A stretch of 64,000 nt of DNA from positions 10,146 through 74,145 of the IMG/VR virus record IMGVR_UViG_3300020195_000020. The stretch is one strand, 5' to 3'. Below are positions 1,564 to 64,000 of the stretch, in pieces. Within the stretch, counting starts at the first letter, position 1; every line of letters begins with the position of its first letter. Source of the stretch: a virus. The translations under genes were made by a program, and so were the position numbers. Below the pieces are notes generated by a model, which saw only the letters and a list, made by a program, of their open reading frames with translations, was not told where the DNA came from and ran no database searches.

Positions 1564-1998
1564 ATGGGTCTTTCCGACAAGCTCTGGGCCGGCATCGGCA
1601 TCCACCAGGTGCTTGCGCATCACCGGAAAACCGTTGTGCACTACCCGGGCGGCAAGCTCCCAAATACGAACCTTCCCGCGGGAGTCACGATCACCAATGC
1701 CCTGGTCGCGTTCGACACGATGATGGGCACCAACGAAATGAGCGGCGACGGCGCGATCACTCGAGACGATTCGGGCGATCGTGAGCGCCGCACCGGGCAC
1801 CTGGAGGTGCCGATGAGCGTCGAGGTCACTGAAAAAGACTTGTGGCTGATCGACGGCGACATCTGGACCACGCAGCGCATGGACGCCAAAGACTCGGGAA
1901 CGGACGCACAGATGCAGGGTTGGCGGATCACCAGCAAGCTGGGCCGTCGCACGCAACACGCACTACCGAAGACCGACCGACCGCTGCGTCGGGGCTGA
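1564..1998 (+). CDS. Head-tail joining/closure protein
   Basis: Phage-like part of ORF 877-1998 starts at ATG 1564 (MGLSDKLW); about 144 aa; synteny after capsid. Confidence 0.5.
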   Translation: MGLSDKLWAGIGIHQVLAHHRKTVVHYPGGKLPNTNLPAGVTITNALVAFDTMMGTNEMSGDGAITRDDSGDRERRTGHLEVPMSVEVTEKDLWLIDGDIWTTQRMDAKDSGTDAQMQGWRITSKLGRRTQHALPKTDRPLRRG

Positions 1999-16491: not shown

Positions 16492-16720
16492 ACTCGCAGC
16501 CGCAGACCTGACAGCGGTTCAGGTAGGTCGACGGGGCGACGCGGATCGAGGATGCCTCGCAGTATGGGCACGGCTTGCGAGAGAATTCCGGAACCGACGC
16601 GATGACGGGAGCGGACTTGGCCGCTGGCTCATCGCCCGGCAAACGAACGAACAGCATCGCCGCCATCACGATTGCCGCGAAGGCTCCAACGATCCAGATT
16701 AGGGCCGCGCCAGGGTTCAT
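16475..16720 (-). CDS. Single-pass membrane protein with C-terminal Zn ribbon
   Basis: MNPGAALIWIVGAFAAIVMAAMLFV TM segment, CPYC...CQVC; ATGA-coupled to the DUF1559 gene. Confidence 0.55.
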   Translation of the reverse strand: MNPGAALIWIVGAFAAIVMAAMLFVRLPGDEPAAKSAPVIASVPEFSRKPCPYCEASSIRVAPSTYLNRCQVCGCEFRSAD

Positions 16721-17892
16721 GGGATGTCGGTTTCGCTTGGTATGACTGTTGACCATGGCGGGCCGCAGAGAGCCGGCATCCCGCTTTGACCAGCGTACAT
16801 GGTTTCCGTCCCGTGACTCGACATGAGGATCGCGTAGATCGAGTACCTGATGTCCTCGCCGATAAACCTTACCGAGCCATCGGCATAGGCCACATTGAAC
16901 CCGCCTGGATGGTTGCTCGCCGGCCGGGCGAACCACCACGCTTTAATATCGGCCGCAGTGACGGCACCAACTGCCGGCGGCAATATCGGCATGCGGTTGA
17001 CTTGAATCGGCGGAAGATCAGGGCCAGCAGGGGGAACGCCCCAGAGCGCTCCCAGACGCCACTCTTCGTCGCCGTAGTTGCGCCAGGTCATGTTCCAGTT
17101 TACCGTCACCGGGATGCCCAGCGTCTCGCCAATCTCGGCGCCGCGATTCTCAGCGAGCATGATCGTCCGGCTCACGCCATCCTGCCTGGTGAGCGTCGCC
17201 GGGTCCATTTTGACGAACGGCTTCTTGTTGCCCGCGGAGCCCGCGTATGCCTGATTAAAGCAGAGCCCGTTCGCGGGCCAGTCGAGCGGGATTGATTGCG
17301 CGTTGTCCACGTCGGCCATCCCGGCGTTCGGGAAGTAGTTCATGGCCGGGCCTTGCAGCGTGGTTACGGAATCGCTGGGGCACAGCAGGACTTCGATCGG
17401 TCGGTTCGGCAGATTGCCCGTCATGCGATACTGCGTATAGATGTCGTTGCGCTCCATATAAGGCAGCAGAGCCGGCACCCAACCAACGTACCCAGGTGTC
17501 GGCACGCCGGTCGGATTTTCACGGGCGTAGACCAACCCAGGAAAGTAGTCCTTGCTGGTGCAGACCTGGATCATCGCCATCGCGGTCTGCCGGATATTGT
17601 TCGTGCAGGTCGCGCGCCGGCCGGCCTCGCGGGCTCGTTGCACGGCCGGAATCAACAGGCCCATCAGCATGGCGATAATGGCGATCACAACCAGCAACTC
17701 GACGAGGGTGAAGGCGCGCCGTTTCATTTTGTTACCTTGAATTGAAGTGCATGCCCGGCGAAGCGTTGCTCGCACCCAATTCGAGAGGTCCATGCCGGAC
17801 TTCTCGGCTTCGGCAAGAAACGCTTGCTTCTCTTCCTTGGTCAGGCGCAGCTCGCAGCGTGCGGTGCGCTCAGGTCGAATCGTTGTGGCCAT
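16717..17892 (-). CDS. Ribbon-helix-helix domain fused to a DUF1559 prepilin-type N-terminal cleavage/methylation (H-X9-DG) protein
   Basis: N-terminus RTARCELRLTKEEKQAFLAEAEKSGMDLSNWVRATL (RHH), then KRRAFTLVELLVVIAIIAMLMGLLIPAVQRAREAGRRATCTNN and HPGGFNVAYADGSVRF; possible second start ATG 17727. Confidence 0.85.
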   Translation of the reverse strand: MATTIRPERTARCELRLTKEEKQAFLAEAEKSGMDLSNWVRATLRRACTSIQGNKMKRRAFTLVELLVVIAIIAMLMGLLIPAVQRAREAGRRATCTNNIRQTAMAMIQVCTSKDYFPGLVYARENPTGVPTPGYVGWVPALLPYMERNDIYTQYRMTGNLPNRPIEVLLCPSDSVTTLQGPAMNYFPNAGMADVDNAQSIPLDWPANGLCFNQAYAGSAGNKKPFVKMDPATLTRQDGVSRTIMLAENRGAEIGETLGIPVTVNWNMTWRNYGDEEWRLGALWGVPPAGPDLPPIQVNRMPILPPAVGAVTAADIKAWWFARPASNHPGGFNVAYADGSVRFIGEDIRYSIYAILMSSHGTETMYAGQSGMPALCGPPWSTVIPSETDIP

Positions 17893-21210: not shown

Positions 21211-21393
21211 ATGCTGGTTCTATCCAGGAAAAAGAACGAATCGATCGTGATCAATAGCGACATCACGATCACGGTCGTCGAAATCCGCGGTGACAAGGTC
21301 CGCCTCGGCATCGAGGCACCCAAGGACATTCCCGTTCACCGCCGCGAAGTGAAGGACGCGATCGATCGCGAGATCGCCGCCCACAAAACGTAA
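21211..21393 (+). CDS. csrA: Carbon storage regulator CsrA/RsmA homologue
   Basis: MLVLSRKKNESIVINSDITITVVEIRGDKVRLGIEAPKDIPVHRREV; SD AAGGAG. Confidence 0.95.
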   Translation: MLVLSRKKNESIVINSDITITVVEIRGDKVRLGIEAPKDIPVHRREVKDAIDREIAAHKT

Positions 21394-54214: not shown

Positions 54215-55562
54215 ATGGCTCTGACCGAAATCGCCTGCGCGACCAAAATTACCGGCCGTCACTTCGTGCCGACCGCCGATCACAACGACTGGAAAGCGAT
54301 TTGCACCACGCCGCAGACCGCCGACACGGCCGATCTGCTCAAGCCGTTCAATGTCAGTCGCTCCGGTCAGAATCTGGCGCTGCTCGACTACGGGTGCACC
54401 AGTTTTCGCTCGCGAGCTCGCTACACGGCCGGCTCGACTCCAAGCGTCAACCCGGTCGTGCAATTCGTCGGGTTCGACCGCAACAACATTCCCCAGCTTC
54501 TCTCGGATGATGACGGCAACACGAGCTTTACGCTCACGGCCGCGGCCGGCAGTGACCTGAAAGACCTGCAGGTGACGCCGGCGGCCTACTCGGCACCGAC
54601 GGGTCTGATCGACGCCCGCAACTGTGCCAAAGTGCTCTGCCTGGTGGTCACGCCGATGTCTGGCGGCGGCACCCAGGGCACCGACTTTGGCCCGGCGATC
54701 ATGATCCAGTGTGAATAGTCGGCCTGCAGCAACCAACGGCAACCACCATCCACGCCACTCAACCGCAGAAGGAAATATGCCATGTCCACCACGATGAAAA
54801 CCAAGCTGTCCCTCGAAATTGACACGGCCACGCCACTCGAGGCGCTGGTGACGTCGGTCGGCAGTGGCGAGAACAATCTTAATGAACCGATCGCCGCCGG
54901 GCAGACGAACCTGGGGGTGACGTGGGCTTGCGACGTCTCGGCCGTGGTGGGCTTCTGGATGAAAGCCGACTGCGACATGGTCGTGAAGACCAACAGCTCG
55001 AGCGTTCCCATTCAGACGTTGAACCTGGTCGCCGGGCGGGTCTATCACTGGAACCTTGGCGACCTGGCTGCCTTTTTCCTGACGACAGACGTCACGAGAC
55101 TGTTCGTGACCACGGCCGAGGGCGTGAGCGGCACCCTGACGATCAAGTGCTTGTACGACGCCACGCCGTAGAATTGACAGGCGGATGACAGGAACTAACA
55201 CCCGGAGAGTATGACCGATGGCCAAGCTACGCGAAGAGACCGCCGACGATCGGAAATTGCGGCTCGAAGAAATGACGCGGATGGAATCAATGAGTGTCGG
55301 GGACCTGGTCGCCCAGCAAATCGCTAAGTTCCGCGTCGTGAGATTCTTCCGGGAACCACCTCTCGCGTGCTCGATGGGCGACGTTTACATTGTCGAGGTG
55401 ACTAATGGCGGGAGAACCAAAGGATGGCAAGAGCCCGTCGATGAGCGAACCCGCAGCATGTATGCCCACGTTGACGATGCGATCAAGGTCGCCTTAGTCA
55501 GGGCGATCTCGAGAATGGACACAGACGACCGGCTGCGTCAGCCAGAAACGGCGGCAAGCTAA
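54215..55562 (+). CDS. Three hypothetical genes (54215-54718 and 54782-55171 beta-rich; 55218-55562)
   Basis: Clear SDs and codon use. Confidence 0.55.
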
Positions 55563-55591
55563 AAAATTCTGCCGCAAATTGGAAATCGCCT

Positions 55592-55627
55592 AAGGCGCGA
55601 GCTCGAAGTCGGGCTCGTCGCCTTTTT
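55592..55627 (+). terminator. Terminator at the point where + and - gene blocks converge
   Basis: AAGGCG-CGAGCTCG...CGGGCTCG-T-CGCCTT followed by a T run. Confidence 0.55.
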
Positions 55628-56527
55628 CATGCGCGTCGATCTGATGGCGCCGGCACCATGCCGGCCTCGGCACACGGTCGGCAGAGGAAGCACTCGCCTG
55701 GCCACAGCTCGCCGAGGTACTGGGGATGCACGGCCGAGCGGCCGCAGCGGTCGCAGGGCACGTCGATCCGTTGGCCTTGCATGTCGTTCACGAAATCCAG
55801 ACCGGCTTGGCCGTCGCTGCGGCTGAACATCATGAATGTCTCATCTTTGACCAACGCCCTGATCGGCATGAACAGCTCACCACTGTTAAGCATCGGCCGG
55901 CTCACTCTCTGGCGTTTGATCGAAGGGCATGGACTCGGCCGTCGACCGACTCTTCGATCAGGAAATCTCCGCTCGCATGCTCCGCACACAATGGGATGCG
56001 CAGGAAAAACTGCATCGTTCCAAGGCGATGGGCGAGACTGATCGGAGTGTCCCTGCCGTTGACTCTTACCGTGGCCGGTGACGCCTGGCACCCATCGACG
56101 CAGCACTTATCGAGTGGTCGGCTCATGCGGGTTCCTTGTCATGAACGCGCTCCGCTTTCCAGGTCGCCAGGTCCTCGCCACTCCGTTGCCAGCGTTTCAG
56201 ATGGCGGCCGCAGAGTCCGTTGGCCACGTGCGGCGCTCCGCACACCTCACAGACCCTGGGCTCGGTCGGGTTGTTCAGGCGACGCGTCTCGGCCGCCTTG
56301 CGGCCCCGCTGGCGTAGCGCCCCCTTGGTCATGCCCGGCGCCCGCCGCGTGGTCTTGATGCCGGCGGCGGCTCGGGCCTGGCGATTCACGGCCGACACGG
56401 CCGCGGCCTTCCGGCAGATCTCTCGACGCAGCTCGGGCGCGCGGGCCCGACGAAAGGCCTCGATCGCTTCCTCGGCAGCCGCCACGTCGGCGTCGGTCAG
56501 GTTATCCAGATCAACCAGGTTGGACAC
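55627..56527 (-). CDS. Three small Cys/Zn-finger genes (55869-55627, 56126-55902, 56527-56123)
   Basis: CDRC..CFLCRPC; CCVDGC..LCAEH; CEVC..LCGRH; SD AGGAG before GTG 56527. Confidence 0.55.
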
Positions 56528-57020
56528 GATTAGCACTCCTGCGGGTGTCGTTAGGTATCTTAGACAGCCGCGGCAAACTCGGCCACACGAAACCGCCGCA
56601 GACGGGCGGGCCAGAGTAGAAATCGCCGGGCCCGGGGGAGCTGCCCCGAAAGGCAGCACGGGTGACTAGTCCGCGCCGGGACCGGCTGGAGCTTCCCCAC
56701 GGCCAGCAATGCCGGCCGCGGGGTCACGTTGGACAAGGATAGCACGCCCGGCGGCCGCCCGGAAACGATCGCCGGCTGAAAAATTCTGACGTGCCAGGTC
56801 GATCCGTTAGGCGCGCGGGGCAAATCGTCCCCGCCGAACCTGTCGCCGCCGACGGCGCGCCGCCAGATTGCGACACAAGGCTAACAGGGGCCCGCCGTTA
56901 CGCTCTGGCCGGTCCAAAACAGGTGCGAATTATGCACGATCGTATGCACGGGCCAGAGTCAGGCTCTCACTCGGGTGAACCGTAGTGTTCGCGCTTTGTT
57001 CGCGCGCGAACACTTGACAC

Positions 57021-59896
57021 TCAGGCGGCCCGCTGCCAGTTGGCCGCCGCCTGGTCTGGCACTCCCAGCGCTCGCATCACGCGCTCGTGCTCCCGACAAT
57101 AGGCGCTGGAGTCTCCCTGGTTCCAGGTAAAGCGGCCGGCCTTGCGCATACGACGATTGGCAGCATCGATGGCGGCCGAGCGGGCCAGGTGGTAACAGTC
57201 GTGATAGGTGTTCGGCAGGTTGGGGCGCATCGCTAGATTCTCCTCGGGTTGGGGACTTAGGCTGCCGCGCAGCCGGAAAGTATGCTTTTATGACAAAGGC
57301 CTATAAACGGCTCACGCGGCCGCGGACTTCCAGTCGTTGACCGGGTCGGTGGCCGCCAGCTCGCGGGCCGCTTCCATTTCTGCGAAGTAGGCCATCATGC
57401 TGGCCCGCAGCGCCTCGCCTTCGGCCAGGTCGGCCCCGATCGTGGCCTTCTCCGCGGCGGTTGGCTCGAACGCGAGCAGCTCTCGCAGGTTGGCCGCGAA
57501 ATAGTCGACCATGCACTGCAAGCCGTCGTCAGCGTGATTGTTCCAGGGCCCGAAATTCCACTTGCCGGACGATCGATTACTCTGGCCGCCGGTTGCCAGG
57601 GTCCCGCCGCGGTTCGACGCGAACCGGGTAGCAATCCAGTTGCCATAGACCGAGACGCGAAGCGGTCCCGCCGGCGTGGCCAGCTCGTAGCAGCGACACG
57701 CGCCAGACTCTTCGCGGAGCCAGACGGCGCCAACGCGGGCCAGCACCTTGCCGGCTTCGACCACGAAATGACAGCGTGACAGGGCAACCGCCTTGCTCGC
57801 TCCCTTGCTCTTCACCAGGGCGCCGCCTTGCGCATAGTCGGGCTGGGCATAGTACGAGGTGAACACCTCCACCAGGTCGGCGCGCTGGCAGGGCAAACAG
57901 GCCGCCAGATCCTGGCCGCCGATTGTGATGGTGGCCCGCTCGTCGCGGGCGCGAATGGTCTCGTTGCAACAAATGCACTTCATGGTCAGCTCCTTGGGCG
58001 CAGTCACTCGCCAGGTTAAAGGGTGGACTTAGGCTCGATCGACCAGCAGGCGGATCGCCCGCATACGGTGGCCGGCGTACCATTCGGGATAGTCGGTGCC
58101 GTGCTCGATGGCCGCCTCGCAATCAGCCGCGATCGACGCGAGCAGATATTTGGCGGGATTCTTTTCATACATGCCCCAGAGTGCGAGCACAGTAGATTCG
58201 TAGTCGCGTGGGCCGTCGTACGTTTTCATGGTCAGCTCCAGTGGCGCAGTCACGCGCCAGAATAGGGGAAGGGAATCAGAACACGACGCACTAGTAGCCT
58301 TCGACGTCGGACAGCGGCTCGACCGCCCGCCAGTCCCGGCGGTTGTGCTCGCGCTTCTCCTGCATGCGAATAGTGCGGGCCATGACCTTGCGGGAATTGA
58401 ACTCCATAAACTCGACGTCCCAGTCGACCGCGCGGCGGGCCGTCCGGTCAGGGTGCGGCGGCTTGTACTCGATCGACCTGCCAAAACTCATCGTGATGCG
58501 CTTCATGGCTTGCTCCTGGGTTAGTTGTTAGAAACTTCAATGTCCATCGTGATGGCCAGTTCCCAGTCGAGATCCATCGTGCCCTCGCGAGTCTCCATTG
58601 AGTCCGACGCGTCAGCCTGGCCGATCGCAATCAGCTTCTCGATCGTGCGGACGACGTCCTCATGCGTTGCGTCCTCGACCTCTGGCGAAGTAACACGTAG
58701 CGTCACGACCTGGTCGCCGGCCGGCTCGCGCGGCTCGCCGTCGGTAGTGGGCCGCAGGCCGTGCTTGTTGAGCATCCAGGCGGCTTGATCGCAGACATCC
58801 GAACCGCTCCAGTCTTTCTCGTCGCTATAGCTATTGCCGTCGAGATAGAGGGAATCTTGTAGGTCGCGAACGATCTCGGCCAGTTTGGCGTGCGAGAGTG
58901 TGGCGGGGTCTTTCATGGTCAGCTCCTTGGGCGGTCAGCCCATCTTGGGAAAACAGGCGAAGGTAAAAAATTCTGACGTTGGCGCGCGGTCCGTTAGGCG
59001 CGCGACCGAAACTGTTGCTGCCGCCCGATCGCCTGGTGCGGGCCCACTAGAGCGGTGCGGCCGATTGACTACAGGGCCAGGTCAGGGCGCCAGCTATTCA
59101 ATGAGCTTGGCTTCCCACTCGTGCCCATCCTGGCACGTGAGCGTGACGCGGCCGGCATCGTCCACGATCGGCGCGGCGGATTCCCAGTCGACGTCCGACG
59201 ATTGCCAGGCGTTGTACTCGTATTCGCCCCCGCCCTCGTGGGCGAGGTAGTATTGAGCCTGCACGGTCTCAAGGATCCGCTCCGGCCGCTTGCCGCAGCT
59301 CGGACAGGTTGAACGCTTAAACTTCATGGCTTGTACTCCTGGCGCAGTCGGGCGCCGGCTTGTGGTGGAAAGATCGAACGGACACGACGCAAACGGCCGC
59401 CAGGTCATGCGCCCAGCAGCTCGGTTACCCGATTGGCCACGGCCATTGCATTCTCAAGGCCGCGCCAGAGCTTGGCGGAAAACAGCTCGGCATATTTCCC
59501 GTCCGGCTTGAGCAGCGCGACGCGCAGATAGTGCGCCTCATTGCTGCGGCAGGTGGCGAAGACAGCGACCTGGCCCCGCATGTTGAACCAGATCGCATCG
59601 GCCGCGGCCCGATTATCCCACGCGAGCGGGCAGCCGATCGACTCGTCAATCAGACCCTCCCGCTTGAGCACCCGATTCAGCCGGGCCAGGACCTGGCGAA
59701 TCGTCATGTCTTCCCGATACCACGCGGCCCGCAGCGCTCGGCGAGGGTCTTTCTTCTCCGCCCAGAGCCCGCCCGGCTTGCGGCCGTCGGCGTAAATCTC
59801 ATCGCGGGCCTTGCTCGCCTTGAACGCGCAGGCGAACCGCCACGGCTTGCCCGTGGGCTTCTTGGCATCGGGATGGAAACAAAAGGTAGAACGCAT
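57021..59896 (-). CDS. Array of small early-type genes (57230-57021, 57983-57312, 58229-58029, 58506-58291, 58916-58521, 59327-59094, 59896-59405)
   Basis: Each has a GGAG SD; five start directly behind the GAC-loop hairpin leader; no recognisable family. Confidence 0.65.
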
Positions 59897-60002
59897 GATT
59901 AGCTCCTTTGGCGCAGTCACGCGCCAGACTGAGGGAAGCGAAACCAACCGGCCGCCGCGGGTGCGAACCGCGGTCACTACGCATGATCGGCCGGGCATCG
60001 AC

Positions 60003-61397
60003 TCAGGCGGCCCGTTGCAGGGTGACCAAGCACGTGTTCACGTTCGTGCCGGACTCGGCGAACGTGCCGGCGGGCAGATCCCAAAACCGACCGCCCATCC
60101 GCTTGACCAGCTCCCGAAACGCGACGGCTTTAGCGTTCTCGCGGAACTCGACGCCGGCGGACATAACGGCCACCAGCTTGCCACCTGGCGCCAGGAACTT
60201 GACCGCGTGGGCGACGTGGTCAATATCCCGCTGGAGATCAAACGGCGGATTCATATAGACACGATCGAACAGGCCCAGCGAATCGACCGACTCGTCCAGG
60301 AAATCGGCCGTGCGAGTTTGCAGACCCTTGGCCCGCAGTGTGGCCGCCCGCTGGAGATTCACTTCGACGCAAGTAATATCGGCCAGCTTGTAGCGTTCGC
60401 GGACGGCGCAAGCTATGGCCCCCTCGCCGGCGCTCGGCTCCAGGACCGTAAACGGCTCGTCCCAATATCGGGGCGATGCGTTCTCCATCATCCGGCCGAC
60501 GACATCATCGGGCGTCGGGTAAAACGCGCCATTCTTGGCCAGGGTGCGATTCGGATTCGCCAGGGGGTCGCCCTTGCCGGCCACTTCATAGGCCGCGCCG
60601 ATGACGTCGCCGTAATACTCGGCCAGCAGCTTGTTACACTCCCGGACCAGGTCGTCACGCTTGAACCAGATATGCAGATTCCCGTTCGCAAAGATGCGGA
60701 TCCGGAAAAACTCATGCTCGACCACGGCCGGCCGCGACCGGCGCGCGGCGGTTTGCACCCCGGCCACGATGCCGGACTCTCGCTCCGGCAGCTCCTTGCC
60801 GGCCAGACGGCAAAACACCCGCTCGACGTCGCGGAGCGTATCATCCTGCCGGCGGTGGTGGTTCCAATACCCGCCCGCCTCAATGGCGTGGTTCAGCACG
60901 ATTCGTGAGCCGATCTTGAAACCATCGTGCGACCGAAACCGGCGATCCAACGACGAAAACGCCTCGGCAATCCCGCGCTGAAACAGCATATCGGCATCGG
61001 CCAGCAGACCGACCAGAGTAGCGCGGGCCGTGCTGGCGACCAATTCCGGCGGATCCTTTTGCAGTTGGCCGCGGAATTGTTCGCGGGCCTTGCGGTCCAT
61101 CAGCTTCTCGAACCCATGATCTTCGATCAGATGCTGCCAGGCGATGGCGTCAACGTGCTTCTTGACCTTCTCCATAAACCGCTCGGGCTCGCGCTGGTAA
61201 GAACACATGGCCGAGCAAATATCCGAAGTCGGCTTGTTCTCGCCGGGGACCAGATCCATCGCATCGTGCAGCAGGTCGTAGGCCTCGCGGAAACGGGACA
61301 GCGCGGCGTTGCGCTGGCTTTCGGCCCGCTCGATCACGTTCGACTGGATCAAAGCGGCGGCGGCGGGGCGGTCTAGTTCGGCAGTAATAATGCTCAT
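60003..61397 (-). CDS. DUF4942-like domain fused to an N6-adenine DNA methyltransferase
   Basis: FRSHDGFKIGSRIV; FFRIRIFANGNLHIWF; FYPTP; VLEPSAGEG; MNPPF; FAESGTNV. Confidence 0.88.
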   Translation of the reverse strand: MSIITAELDRPAAAALIQSNVIERAESQRNAALSRFREAYDLLHDAMDLVPGENKPTSDICSAMCSYQREPERFMEKVKKHVDAIAWQHLIEDHGFEKLMDRKAREQFRGQLQKDPPELVASTARATLVGLLADADMLFQRGIAEAFSSLDRRFRSHDGFKIGSRIVLNHAIEAGGYWNHHRRQDDTLRDVERVFCRLAGKELPERESGIVAGVQTAARRSRPAVVEHEFFRIRIFANGNLHIWFKRDDLVRECNKLLAEYYGDVIGAAYEVAGKGDPLANPNRTLAKNGAFYPTPDDVVGRMMENASPRYWDEPFTVLEPSAGEGAIACAVRERYKLADITCVEVNLQRAATLRAKGLQTRTADFLDESVDSLGLFDRVYMNPPFDLQRDIDHVAHAVKFLAPGGKLVAVMSAGVEFRENAKAVAFRELVKRMGGRFWDLPAGTFAESGTNVNTCLVTLQRAA

Positions 61398-61478
61398 GGT
61401 CAGCTCCTTGGCACAGTCACGCGCCAGATTGTAGGGAAAGAACGAAACGACGACGACGACGACAGCGACGCGCCAGAG

Positions 61479-61865
61479 TCAGGCGGCGCGGGGAACCTGC
61501 GGGTTCAGTTGATACAGCAGCTTGCGAACCTCGGCGGCCAGCTCGTAGACCTGGCGGGCCTCGGGGTGGTCCGCGTGCCGGGCGTGAAACTCCATATTGA
61601 ACTGCGACCAGTCCCACGCATTGTGAGAACTGACGGACGGAACCTGCCCAGGAGGTTGCCACACCATCACGACCAGCTCTTCAGAGTGTGAGCCCTGACC
61701 GAGCACGATTGCCCGGTAATACCCGGCGCTAAAATCGCCGGCCGGCTGATTGCAGTACAGCAGCCGCAGCGCACGTTGGGCAATGATCCGATCTTGCTCG
61801 ACCTCGCGGCAGGCATTCTCGGCCGCTTCACGTGACGGGAAACGGTATTTGCGACGCTTGGCCAT
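61479..61865 (-). CDS. Hypothetical protein
   Basis: 128 aa; SD GAGGAG. Confidence 0.6.
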   Translation of the reverse strand: MAKRRKYRFPSREAAENACREVEQDRIIAQRALRLLYCNQPAGDFSAGYYRAIVLGQGSHSEELVVMVWQPPGQVPSVSSHNAWDWSQFNMEFHARHADHPEARQVYELAAEVRKLLYQLNPQVPRAA

Positions 61866-62381
61866 TGCTCTATCTCCTCGCTGAATAGGGTTTGAAACCA
61901 GATCCCGAAATAATCAAAAAGTCAAAAATTTCCGGCGCTTTTCACGTTAATCCCCCGGCGGCGCCGCGCCGGCCTGCCGCCGGCCGGGACCCCCGCCCGC
62001 GGTGTCTCCCGCCCGCGACACGTGCACGCGCGGGCGCGCGCGCTCCCCCGCGGATTCGCGCGGCGGGCGGGCCCGCGCGACGTCCAAACAAATCCGGATC
62101 CCCACGCGGCCCACGCGTCGCACCTGGCGACGTGCACGCGGCCGCGGTTTCGCTCCGTCACAAGATCGGGCCCCGCGGCCGATCGCCGGCGGGCCCACGC
62201 GTCACGGGCCAGCACGGGCCCGCAGACGGGCCCGCGTCATGGCGGGCCCCACGAATCAAGAATCGGCCAGACCGGGCCAGCACGGGCCCGCGTCACGTTC
62301 AAGCGGCCGGACGATGGGCCAGCACCTGGCGGGCCCATCGTCGGGCCGCCCTGGCGACGTTCGCCAGGACAGCTCACGACG

Positions 62382-62642
62382 TCAAGCGGCGGGCCGCGGC
62401 GGGCCCACGGTCACCCGATGGCCGGACGATTGCAGCTCGGCCAGCACGCGGGCCCCGTCGACAGCGGACAGCATGCAAAACACCTGGCGACCGCGGCCGG
62501 CGGGCACGGCCCACAATCGGGCGCCAGAGAACAGCGACAAGCGGCGGGCGGACTCCCCGCGGGCCAGATACTGGCCGCGAATCTTCTCCAGACCGATCGG
62601 CCGGCGGGCCGCGGGTTCGCACCGCGTCACGAGACCTAACAT
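62382..62642 (-). CDS. Small hypothetical protein
   Basis: ATG lies at the exact end of the 127-bp repeated leader that also serves the 63876 gene. Confidence 0.45.
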   Translation of the reverse strand: MLGLVTRCEPAARRPIGLEKIRGQYLARGESARRLSLFSGARLWAVPAGRGRQVFCMLSAVDGARVLAELQSSGHRVTVGPPRPAA

Positions 62643-62766
62643 GGTAGACAGCTCCCCGGGCAGTCACGCCCGATAGTAGGACCTGGCGGGCCGTGCGACG
62701 TGCACGGCTTGCGCCCGATCGTGGGCCAGCACAATGGCGGGCCCACGATCGGGCGCCCCCTGGCGA
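62640..62766. repeat. 127-bp exact direct repeat, copy 1
   Basis: Identical to 63874-64000 (offset 1234 bp). Confidence 0.95.
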
Positions 62767-62793
62767 CGTCGCCAGGGGACACCCGCGGCCATG

Positions 62794-63876
62794 CTAGGCC
62801 GCGTCACGGCCCACGATGGCGCCCGTGGTCGCATGCTCAAAGATCAACCCCGGCTCGGCCGCGGGCTCGGACACCTCGACCGCGGCGGGCTCGGCCACGA
62901 TCGGCGGCGCCAGCTCGGCCAGCTTTGCCCCCTTGGTCCGGCGGGTAAACTCCGCCGCGCCCGGATACTTGAACATGCCGCGCAGATCGGCCACCAGCTT
63001 GGCGCCGTCGTATCGGCCGAACGTGTCCGCATCCGCGCAATAGACCGTCACGGCCCGGCAATCATCCGCGACCGCTTCGACCACGGCCGCGGGTTCGGCC
63101 AGCTCCAATCGGGCCAGCTCCTGGCGGACACGATCGGCCATCGTGGGATTCTGCCGCATATCGTGCCGCCAGAATCTGGCCGCGCCGTCGGGCCCATTGT
63201 CGGCCGCCAGCGGCATTAGCACCGATGAACAGATCCGCCCGTCCGGGTGCGCGACCTGCAACGTGCACGCCCGCTCCGGATCTTTGATGAACAGCGTCAC
63301 GCCGCGCGAATCGTCGCTAGTGGCCAGCACGCGCGCGACGTCGCACAACTCCGCCAGGAAACGCGGATCCAACGTGATGGCGGTCCCGTCTGCGACGTCC
63401 GAATAGGCGAAAACGTCGCGCCATTTGGGAAAGCGCCCCATGCCCCGGGCATCGGCAATTGAGAATTCGGCCGCGCCATCGGTCGCACGAATCGGCAAGC
63501 GGCGCTCAATAGGCGCATCTTCCGGCGCCCCCTTGGCCGCGGGGATAATCGGGCCATTTTCGTCGATGAACACAAACCCCAGCTCCGGCCGGCGCTTGAT
63601 CGCCTTACGGTCCAACTTCCACGCGCAGACCTGGCGGACCGCTTCGGCGGAAACCAGCACCGAAAACTCCGGCGAGGGGACCACGCCCGCGGGCGCCAGG
63701 GGGTGCGCTTCCGGCTCGGTCCACTTGTACGCCGTCAGCCGGCGGCCATCGGTGGCGACCGCGACCGCGGATCCGTCGGCGCACCGCTCCAGCAGAATAC
63801 AACCCAGCGCGTATCGGCTGGACGATTGGTCGCAGACCTTGGTCAATTGCTTGAACGTCTCAATAGAAATTAGCAT
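62794..63876 (-). CDS. DNA polymerase III beta-clamp-like protein (partial clamp fold plus C-terminal extension)
   Basis: SSRYALGCILLE; AVATDGRRL; GRFPKWRDVF; ITLDPRFLAEL; SVLMPL. Confidence 0.75.
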   Translation of the reverse strand: MLISIETFKQLTKVCDQSSSRYALGCILLERCADGSAVAVATDGRRLTAYKWTEPEAHPLAPAGVVPSPEFSVLVSAEAVRQVCAWKLDRKAIKRRPELGFVFIDENGPIIPAAKGAPEDAPIERRLPIRATDGAAEFSIADARGMGRFPKWRDVFAYSDVADGTAITLDPRFLAELCDVARVLATSDDSRGVTLFIKDPERACTLQVAHPDGRICSSVLMPLAADNGPDGAARFWRHDMRQNPTMADRVRQELARLELAEPAAVVEAVADDCRAVTVYCADADTFGRYDGAKLVADLRGMFKYPGAAEFTRRTKGAKLAELAPPIVAEPAAVEVSEPAAEPGLIFEHATTGAIVGRDAA

Positions 63877-64000
63877 GGTAGACAGCTCCCCGGGCAGTCA
63901 CGCCCGATAGTAGGACCTGGCGGGCCGTGCGACGTGCACGGCTTGCGCCCGATCGTGGGCCAGCACAATGGCGGGCCCACGATCGGGCGCCCCCTGGCGA
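63874..64000. repeat. 127-bp exact direct repeat, copy 2 (runs off the window end)
   Basis: Identical to 62640-62766. Confidence 0.95.

Follow-up and report, generated by a model that had tools for sequence, protein, structure and literature searches.

Nine genes of the uncultured phage represented by IMG/VR virus record IMGVR_UViG_3300020195_000020 carry, directly in front of their Shine-Dalgarno (SD) sequence, a short GC hairpin whose loop always contains GAC. With a probability of roughly 40%, we read this element as a hairpin in the mRNA, bordering the ribosome-binding site (RBS) on its 5' side, that is recognised by a protein and serves the joint control of translation or processing, a figure that includes a small share for the phage's own CsrA. 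Folding of the hairpin in RNA, its recognition by a protein and an effect on translation or processing are inferred from a variable stem whose changes are compensated, an invariant and asymmetric loop, wobble pairs on the mRNA-sense strand, rigid spacing to the SD and an internal position in polycistronic RNA. The DNA that we analysed, called the window here, is 64,000 nt long, covers bases 10146-74145 of the 74,145-bp record and ends where the contig ends. A first-pass annotation had placed eight such hairpins on the minus strand of the window, and reading that strand confirmed each of them in its place; eight is the number in the window but not the total, as a ninth copy lies outside it. The copies, with their scores from a covariance model built from them (R1), are:

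57981-58019, minus strand: copy 1, type A, decayed; CTGGCGAGTGACTGCGCCC, then AAGGAG, CTGACC and ATG (57983), the stretch from hairpin to SD reading GGCGaGTGACTgCGCC-cAAGGAG; one A-G stem mismatch, hairpin free energy -5.7 kcal/mol; before a 223-aa zinc-ribbon ORFan; R1 49.7 bits, E 8e-15.
58227-58265, minus strand: copy 2, type A; TGGCGC GTGACT GCGCCA, then ctGGAG, CTGACC and ATG (58229); -10.2 kcal/mol; before a 66-aa ORFan; R1 49.9 bits.
58914-58950, minus strand: copy 3, type B; TGGGC TGACC GCCCA, then AGGAG, CTGACC and ATG (58916); 5-bp stem and 5-nt loop, outer pair T-A (C-G in type C); before a 131-aa ORFan; R1 37.1 bits.
59325-59363, minus strand: copy 4, type A variant; GGCGC CCGACT GCGCC, then AGGAG, 8 nt and ATG (59327); GAC retained in the loop despite different flanking loop bases; before a 77-aa zinc-ribbon ORFan; R1 35.5 bits.
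59894-59932, minus strand: copy 5, type A; TGGCGC GTGACT GCGCCA, then aAGGAG, CTAATC and ATG (59896); in the minimum-energy fold, upstream GCUUC pairs with GGAGC around the hairpin; before a 163-aa ORFan; R1 51.6 bits.
61395-61432, minus strand: copy 6, type A with a G-U pair; TGGCGC GTGACT GTGCCA, then AGGAG, CTGACC and ATG (61397); before a 464-aa DUF4942-methyltransferase gene (Pfam DUF4942 1.8e-46; MTS); R1 51.1 bits.
62640-62679, minus strand: copy 7, type C; CGGGC GTGACT GCCCG, then gGGAG, 9 nt and ATG (62642); forms the 3' end of a 130-nt repeat (family D1); before an 86-aa ORFan; R1 41.6 bits.
63874-63913, minus strand: copy 8, type C; leader identical to that of copy 7, ATG 63876; before a 360-aa clamp-like gene (phrog_947 processivity factor, 8e-6); R1 41.6 bits.
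L004 1142-1182, minus strand, outside the window: copy 9, type C; before a DUF932 gene (DUF932 2e-39); R1 43.5 bits.

Each copy is a GC hairpin of 5-7 bp with the loop Y-GAC-Y. When the leaders are aligned on the loop, GAC is identical in 8/8 distinct leaders, in line with the first-pass annotation, and is followed by T or C and then always by G. The distances downstream are nearly fixed as well: 10-12 nt from GAC to GGAG, 6-9 nt from GGAG to ATG and 20-23 nt from GAC to ATG, so that the 3' foot of the hairpin (free energies -5.7 to -10.2 kcal/mol) lies 0-3 nt from the SD GGAG, which it had been said to abut, and 11-14 nt from the AUG. The conserved block stops at the ATG. All copies sit in intergenic spacers of 43-175 nt in a leftward operon, and the genes that follow are mutually unrelated, seven of the nine having no family match; a look at two of the downstream ORFans in the ESM Atlas gave nothing usable. 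Leftward genes lacking the hairpin are the one with ATG 58506, which is coupled to its neighbour by a shorter spacer, the first two downstream of the promoter, and the one at 61865.

The copies fall into three stem types:

Type A: GGCGC / GCGCC, five leaders, two of them decayed.
Type B: TGGGC / GCCCA, one leader.
Type C: CGGGC / GCCCG, three leaders, in near-identical long repeats.

That stems differ while pairing is kept had been stated before, and it holds: when the six distinct hairpins are aligned by hand on their structure, standard pairs fill 29 of the 30 stem cells and one cell is a mismatch; only 40 of 20,000 shuffles of the 3' partners reach a count of 29. Double changes occur at two of the five pairs, the outer one (G-C, T-A or C-G) and the third (C-G or G-C); the remaining stem changes are a G-C to G-U change in one copy and the single mismatch in another. 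A model-fitted alignment, in which type B and the outer pair of type C are placed wrongly, is 90% paired compared with 81% in shuffles (matched by 8 of 500), and all slid registers of that alignment are 36-58% paired. Three kinds of pair form on the sense strand only: the loop-closing G-T, an internal G-U in the copy at 61397 and, in type C, the outer T-G. On the other strand they become A-C mismatches, which suggests that it is the mRNA-sense strand that folds. These comparisons are suggestive of selection for compensatory pairing. With a loop that stays invariant while the sequences upstream of the hairpin have drifted and the stems have changed, the pattern suggests that the loop is read for its sequence and the stem for its shape.

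An unfiltered R1 search of both strands of the whole 74,145-bp genome recovers the nine copies, every one of them on the minus strand, with 35-52 bits (E 1e-15 to 8e-10), and, besides the duplicate of copy 8 in the terminal repeat, the next independent match in 74 kb on either strand has an E of about 0.01. The same search found no copy before plus-strand genes, structural or replication, in agreement with the first-pass annotation, which had seen no such leader there. GC-rich chance hairpins do stand before 7 of 48 plus-strand GGAG..ATG sites, and these have no common sequence. The combination GGAG-N0-3-CTGACCATG occurs six times in the genome, always on the minus strand of the leftward module and never on the plus strand.

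The hairpins also appear to lie inside a transcript. No sigma-70-like site was found in 55400-64000, a weak test given how poorly Planctomycetes promoters are known, and none of the hairpins is followed by a U tract: AAGGAG comes next, and none of them is among the terminator-like sites found. Since neither a promoter-like site nor a U-tract terminator accompanies the hairpins, they should be transcribed within polycistronic RNA. A sigma-70-like site, TTGACA-17-TAGGAT (10/12 matches), does stand at the head of the module at L004 2218-2190 on the minus strand, flanked by two direct repeats of GATTGACAAC; the site is directed towards the leftward operon, lies opposite a helix-turn-helix (HTH) gene and the terminase, and is likely the early promoter of that operon, with the GATTGACAAC repeats as its putative operators. 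Other kinds of signal were tried and dropped. A promoter of N4 or T7 type was set aside as no phage polymerase is among the Pfam families listed for 80 open reading frames. A sigma-54 promoter would need a GG-to-GC spacing of 10, but the spacing here is 9 or 11, and the match is lost in types B and C. For a trans-acting anti-leader RNA, complements of the loop or SD block outside the leaders are at chance level, with none in non-coding hairpins, and a c4-like structure at 322-466 lacks a complementary loop.

We propose that the element is a cis-acting mRNA signal of one long leftward operon of early and accessory genes in a temperate Planctomycetes phage. A phage or host protein would recognise the loop, acting as a translational repressor, an activator or a hairpin-specific endonuclease, and, because the hairpin abuts the RBS, its occupancy or cleavage by that protein would govern how ribosomes reach all nine genes together. 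The putatively co-controlled genes include the DUF932 gene, the clamp-like gene and an orphan DNA methyltransferase. A fuller version, in which the hairpin serves a private RNA regulon as its operator, a phage or Planctomycetes protein binds or cuts at the stem foot and thereby switches nine early genes, and the unit doubles as a plug-in connector for new genes, seems to us doubtful. The first-pass annotation had likewise proposed a single-stranded structural element on the SD of otherwise unrelated genes. This much is supported by the compensation, the loop, the sense-strand wobbles, the spacing and the lack of promoter or terminator; a decision among its three roles (regulator site, processing site or capture signal) and a link to CsrA are not.

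Such a role has a precedent in T4, where the translation initiation regions of many early genes are the target of a single factor: RegB cuts within GGAG at the SD, and RegA competes with the ribosome on about 30 mRNAs (PMC3014915). The sites of RegB and RegA are unstructured, A-rich and without a hairpin, unlike the element described here, and no homologue of either protein was detected in the phage. Comparable too are protein-read hairpins next to an RBS, those of the MS2 and PP7 coat operators, the thrS operator and boxB of P22 and lambda, with specific loop bases on a short stem whose sequence may vary; in P22 boxB the stem is likewise GC and the loop contains GAC, and boxB functions in antitermination jointly with boxA and N. 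These operator hairpins occur once or twice per genome, whereas our element is present nine times, lacks a boxA and comes with no recognisable protein of the N or coat type. RNase III sites of the T7 R type consist of about 20 bp of double-stranded RNA, and the GAC hairpin has only 5-7 bp; a separate 17-bp hairpin within the type-C repeats could be such a site.

Several points weigh against the protein-read hairpin. All covariation is among paralogous copies of one genome, with at most three independent stem types, the three CGGGC copies counting as one such type because they lie in near-identical repeats, and part of it could reflect gene conversion of palindromes. The copies at 57983 and 59327 have weakened stems. 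Predicted accessibility of the SD is the same as in 34 control phage genes (Mann-Whitney p = 0.28), and the folds of whole leaders are no stabler than those of shuffles (z -0.8 to +1.7). No candidate for the loop-binding protein was recognised, the sole recognisable RNA-binding protein being CsrA, which reads GGA and not GAC. No relative bearing the element turned up in IMG/VR, in JGI metagenome contigs, at about 95 relative loci or in five metagenome-assembled genomes (MAGs). Finally, the listed carriers of the stretch are 12 microbial-mat metagenome runs, whose DNA is near-identical to it; all 12 are DNA runs and none is an RNA run.

The searches for relatives covered several levels. Rfam gave no match over the window at gathering thresholds, a check that the first-pass annotation had proposed, and at E up to 5 it gave only spurious matches of microRNA type on long hairpins. 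An exact 16-mer has 26 single matches in IMG/VR, none of them then followed by an SD and ATG, as expected by chance; a degenerate pattern of loop, arm, SD and spacer has none in IMG/VR and 11 single matches in JGI metagenome contigs, the 5' arm being present in none; and an 18-mer of a second leader, described below, has one chance match in IMG/VR. The hairpin leader is absent from six relatives of the DUF4942-methylase (40-51% identity), and among 80 IMG/VR and 9 GTDB relatives of the terminase (up to 54% identity) no R1 match is better than E 0.005. These terminase and methylase relatives make up the roughly 95 loci searched, a set that excludes the Logan/ENA contigs of the closest terminase relatives (52-54% identity). 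Over five whole Planctomycetes MAGs R1 gave chance matches only, and IMG/VR holds no close relatives of the clamp-like and DUF932 genes. One lone look-alike, at L031 9621-9658 on the plus strand of a 109-kb IMG/VR contig, consists of a short GC hairpin, AAGGAG, 2 nt and CTGACCATG (R1 E = 0.005). A homologue of the DUF4942-methylase lies 2.2 kb upstream of this look-alike, which is the single copy in the 13 kb searched and is probably due to chance.

The alternative that survives best, although we think it unlikely, is that the leader is a homology patch for the swap, gain or loss of small genes, with the hairpin at most an attenuator and the regulatory uniformity a by-product. Such a linker would resemble the promoter-early stem-loops (PeSLs) of T4-type phages, which combine a strong sigma-70 promoter, terminator activity and a length that suffices for a recombination linker (PMC2839356). 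Like our element, PeSLs are repeated intergenic GC stem-loops that end in an SD and start codon and stand mostly before ORFans in a plastic early region; this layout is shared, and PeSLs have been shown to recombine (PMC2839356). The cargo here would fit, with seven of nine genes lacking a family match and all of them mutually unrelated, as would the end of conservation at the ATG, the varying combinations of hairpin and CTGACC spacer, and a 5'-arm-like fragment past the stop codon at 61476. Moreover, three leaders lie in 130-150-nt repeats of 99-100% identity, as recent gene conversion predicts. A homology patch, however, needs neither an invariant loop nor compensated stems; PeSLs contain a promoter, and here no promoter-like site or U tract was detected; and the stem-loop is fixed against the SD, where its position in PeSLs is variable. 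Nor was any swap at a leader junction seen, no sister genome having turned up for comparison; the contigs of four mat runs were identical to the reference, with no natural variants and no joint between leaders. A linker role is compatible with the regulatory reading and does not exclude it.

One joint was seen elsewhere: contigs from two mat runs (X10, X11) join 60013 to 61957, skipping 60014-61956, which holds almost the whole DUF4942 methyltransferase gene as well as a 128-aa gene. The evidence for this joint is weak, with only 21 letters on its short side, and its breakpoints lie away from the leaders.

A purely structural element that needs no factor strikes us as rather improbable. It might insulate the RBS, stack on the SD-anti-SD helix, stabilise the 5' or 3' ends after an RNA cut, or clamp a weak outer helix in which the upstream pyrimidine tract masks the SD. 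Hairpins of -5.7 to -10.2 kcal/mol at the edge of the 30S footprint would suit such a part, and four leader folds, those of 59896, 58229, 61397 (centroid) and 62642, pair an upstream UUCC, GCUUC or UCCU tract with GGAG around the hairpin. A role in shape only would nevertheless leave the invariant GAC unexplained, and neither the SD accessibility, equal to that of controls (p = 0.28), nor the leader folds (z -0.8 to +1.7) speak for it. Masking of the SD by the pyrimidine tract was tried in its own right and rejected, the folds being suggestive and significance absent.

It is distinctly improbable, in our view, that the palindrome acts at the level of DNA, either as an operator or stoperator through which the phage repressor would block the leftward operon in a lysogen or as part of a host-polymerase promoter used with an unrecognised factor. 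The phage is temperate, and there is a known parallel in Cluster K mycobacteriophages, where start-associated sequences (SAS) have a 13-bp asymmetric consensus, GGGATAGGAGCCC, 3-7 bp before the start codon, with an inverted repeat immediately upstream in about half of the copies (PMC3203893). These extended start-associated sequences (ESAS) are 17-bp imperfect inverted repeats around a spacer of 4-13 bp, their departures from symmetry do not support RNA pairing, and the authors favoured DNA-binding sites, while the stoperators of L5 are an example of many sites inside operons (PMC3203893). A loosely kept TAcaAT-like hexamer 1-2 nt upstream of some hairpins, and a GTCGTG about 17 nt further up in three copies, might be read in the same way. 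Yet the half-sites of our element vary (GGCGC, TGGGC, CGGGC) around a fixed asymmetric GAC centre, the opposite of a dimer operator; the stem changes are compensatory, and each wobble becomes a mismatch when the other strand is read. Conservation is lacking in the TAcaAT-like hexamer, 55400-64000 holds no sigma-70-like site, and neither the Pfam families listed for 80 open reading frames (ORFs) nor separate Pfam and PHROG scans, the latter of large ORFs, include an RNA polymerase or sigma factor. The GATTGACAAC direct repeats at the real promoter are the likely operators.

The likeness to SAS that the first-pass annotation had noted, together with the difference in pairing, stands. In both, an AGGAG block precedes the ATG by a few bases in many unrelated genes, in a single orientation, before non-structural genes only, and is missing from the host. 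The element differs from SAS in that (A)AGGAG-CTGACC-ATG follows the hairpin, and only AGGAG is common to it and GGGATAGGAGCCC; it differs from ESAS in its arms of 5-7 bp, their compensation (29/30 cells paired) and the invariant loop, and in host phylum, Planctomycetes as opposed to Actinobacteria. Because it does not share the sequence and structure features of SAS and ESAS or the promoter feature of PeSLs, the element appears to be a member of neither, yet of the same kind: the start-associated repeated leaders of phage early and accessory genes.

Of the two RNA-binding proteins that had been named as candidates, ASCH is not among the Pfam families listed and CsrA is present:

21211-21393, plus strand: CsrA homologue of 60 aa (Pfam PF02599, 1.5e-25) with the usual VHRxE RNA-binding segment.

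That the leaders are targets of this CsrA, a dimer binding AAGGAG at the hairpin foot and shutting the leftward genes once the rightward operon is expressed, is highly improbable, for although CAAGGAGC resembles the CsrA core A(N)GGA, what is conserved is the loop GAC, CsrA sites show GGA in a hairpin loop, mostly with another GGA at the SD, and the Y-GAC-Y loop has none, the sole GGA being in the SD and outside the hairpin, the base before GGA varies (AAGGA, CUGGA, CAGGA, GGGGA), and GGAG RBSs occur throughout the plus-strand genes too and so do not single out the module.

The leaders have further parts around the hairpin. CTGACC-ATG, which had been said to follow often, does so after four of nine hairpins, and it also occurs in two hairpin-less leaders at the operon head. 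Hairpin and CTGACC spacer are thus separable modules, given that the CTGACCATG block has four occurrences after a hairpin and two in a hairpin-less leader. The latter is a second type of leader, CACAAACC..AACGGAGATCCTGACCATG, which stands before the first two operon genes at L004 ~1512-1545 and ~1851-1885 (minus strand) and carries the CTGACCATG block. Most copies are preceded by a pyrimidine-rich tract, and the tract TGCGTCGTGT that the first-pass annotation had placed at about 58281 and 59382 is present there, at ~58281-58290 and 59380-59390. The pyrimidine-rich tract as a whole is only loosely conserved, with a column identity of 3-5/8 against 7-8/8 in the loop (alignment A6). Three copies are embedded in long intergenic repeats, of which L004 1145-1290 belongs to the same family of 130-150 nt (99-100% identity). 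Each of these type-C repeats contains a perfect 20-nt palindrome (CCCTGGCGACGTCGCCAGGG) as well as hairpins of 17 bp and 7 bp and then the GAC hairpin, and their RNA fold has z = -4.5.

61433-61478, minus strand: example of the pyrimidine-rich tract (GTC repeats, TTTCCC).
62637-62766, minus strand: 130-nt intergenic repeat with a type-C copy, family D1; second copy at 63871-64000, 99-100% identity.

A terminal repeat of 113 bp closes the record on itself, so that the array of minus-strand genes runs on from the window end into the contig start. This terminal repeat lies entirely within the 130-150-nt intergenic repeat family, so that the overlap closing the record could be repeat-induced; that would bear only on the DUF932 gene as the immediate upstream neighbour of the clamp-like gene, and not on the existence of the ninth copy. 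On the plus strand a lambda-type terminase (L004 3377-5362) is followed by portal, protease and structural genes and then by replication and accessory genes, the largest ORF of the phage being 1017 aa. The presence of an integrase makes the phage temperate. A DUF1559 prepilin-type gene that it carries, and the taxonomy of its terminase relatives in genomes, of which 6/9 lie in Pirellulales, Planctomycetia and Planctomycetaceae MAGs, together mark the host as a planctomycete. At 16717-17892 (minus strand) a single 391-aa frame combines NikA-like (ribbon-helix-helix), N_methyl and DUF1559 matches in Pfam.

Two further features of the module were noted. Window positions 61866-62381 (minus strand) are 516 nt of non-coding DNA of ~70% GC with dense GGGCCCG and GTGACGCGGGCCCG repeats and an AT-rich patch before the hairpin-less gene's ATG at 61865; it could represent an iteron-bearing origin or else an internal promoter. 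Three elements of the CGTCAGAATTTTTTA type, candidate terminators or promoters, lie at 55542-55574, 56759-56791 and 58946-58978 (minus strand), two of them preceded by a similar GC-rich stretch with GCGCGCCTAACGG; one copy of this type is at the convergent end of the module.

Shared leaders before phage early and accessory genes, such as SAS/ESAS and PeSLs, have been described for fifteen years, and no mechanism has been established for them. The set of copies reported here is unusually clean: it is small, fixed against the RBS, and combines compensated stems with an invariant three-base loop. It therefore offers a sharp, testable case that some of these leaders act as RNA, and it could serve as bait for finding the factor. 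To our knowledge, the biology of Planctomycetes phages and their gene-expression signals is almost unexplored, and if the element does prove to be a portable signal for translation or processing, it might become an insulating part for expression constructs in Planctomycetes.

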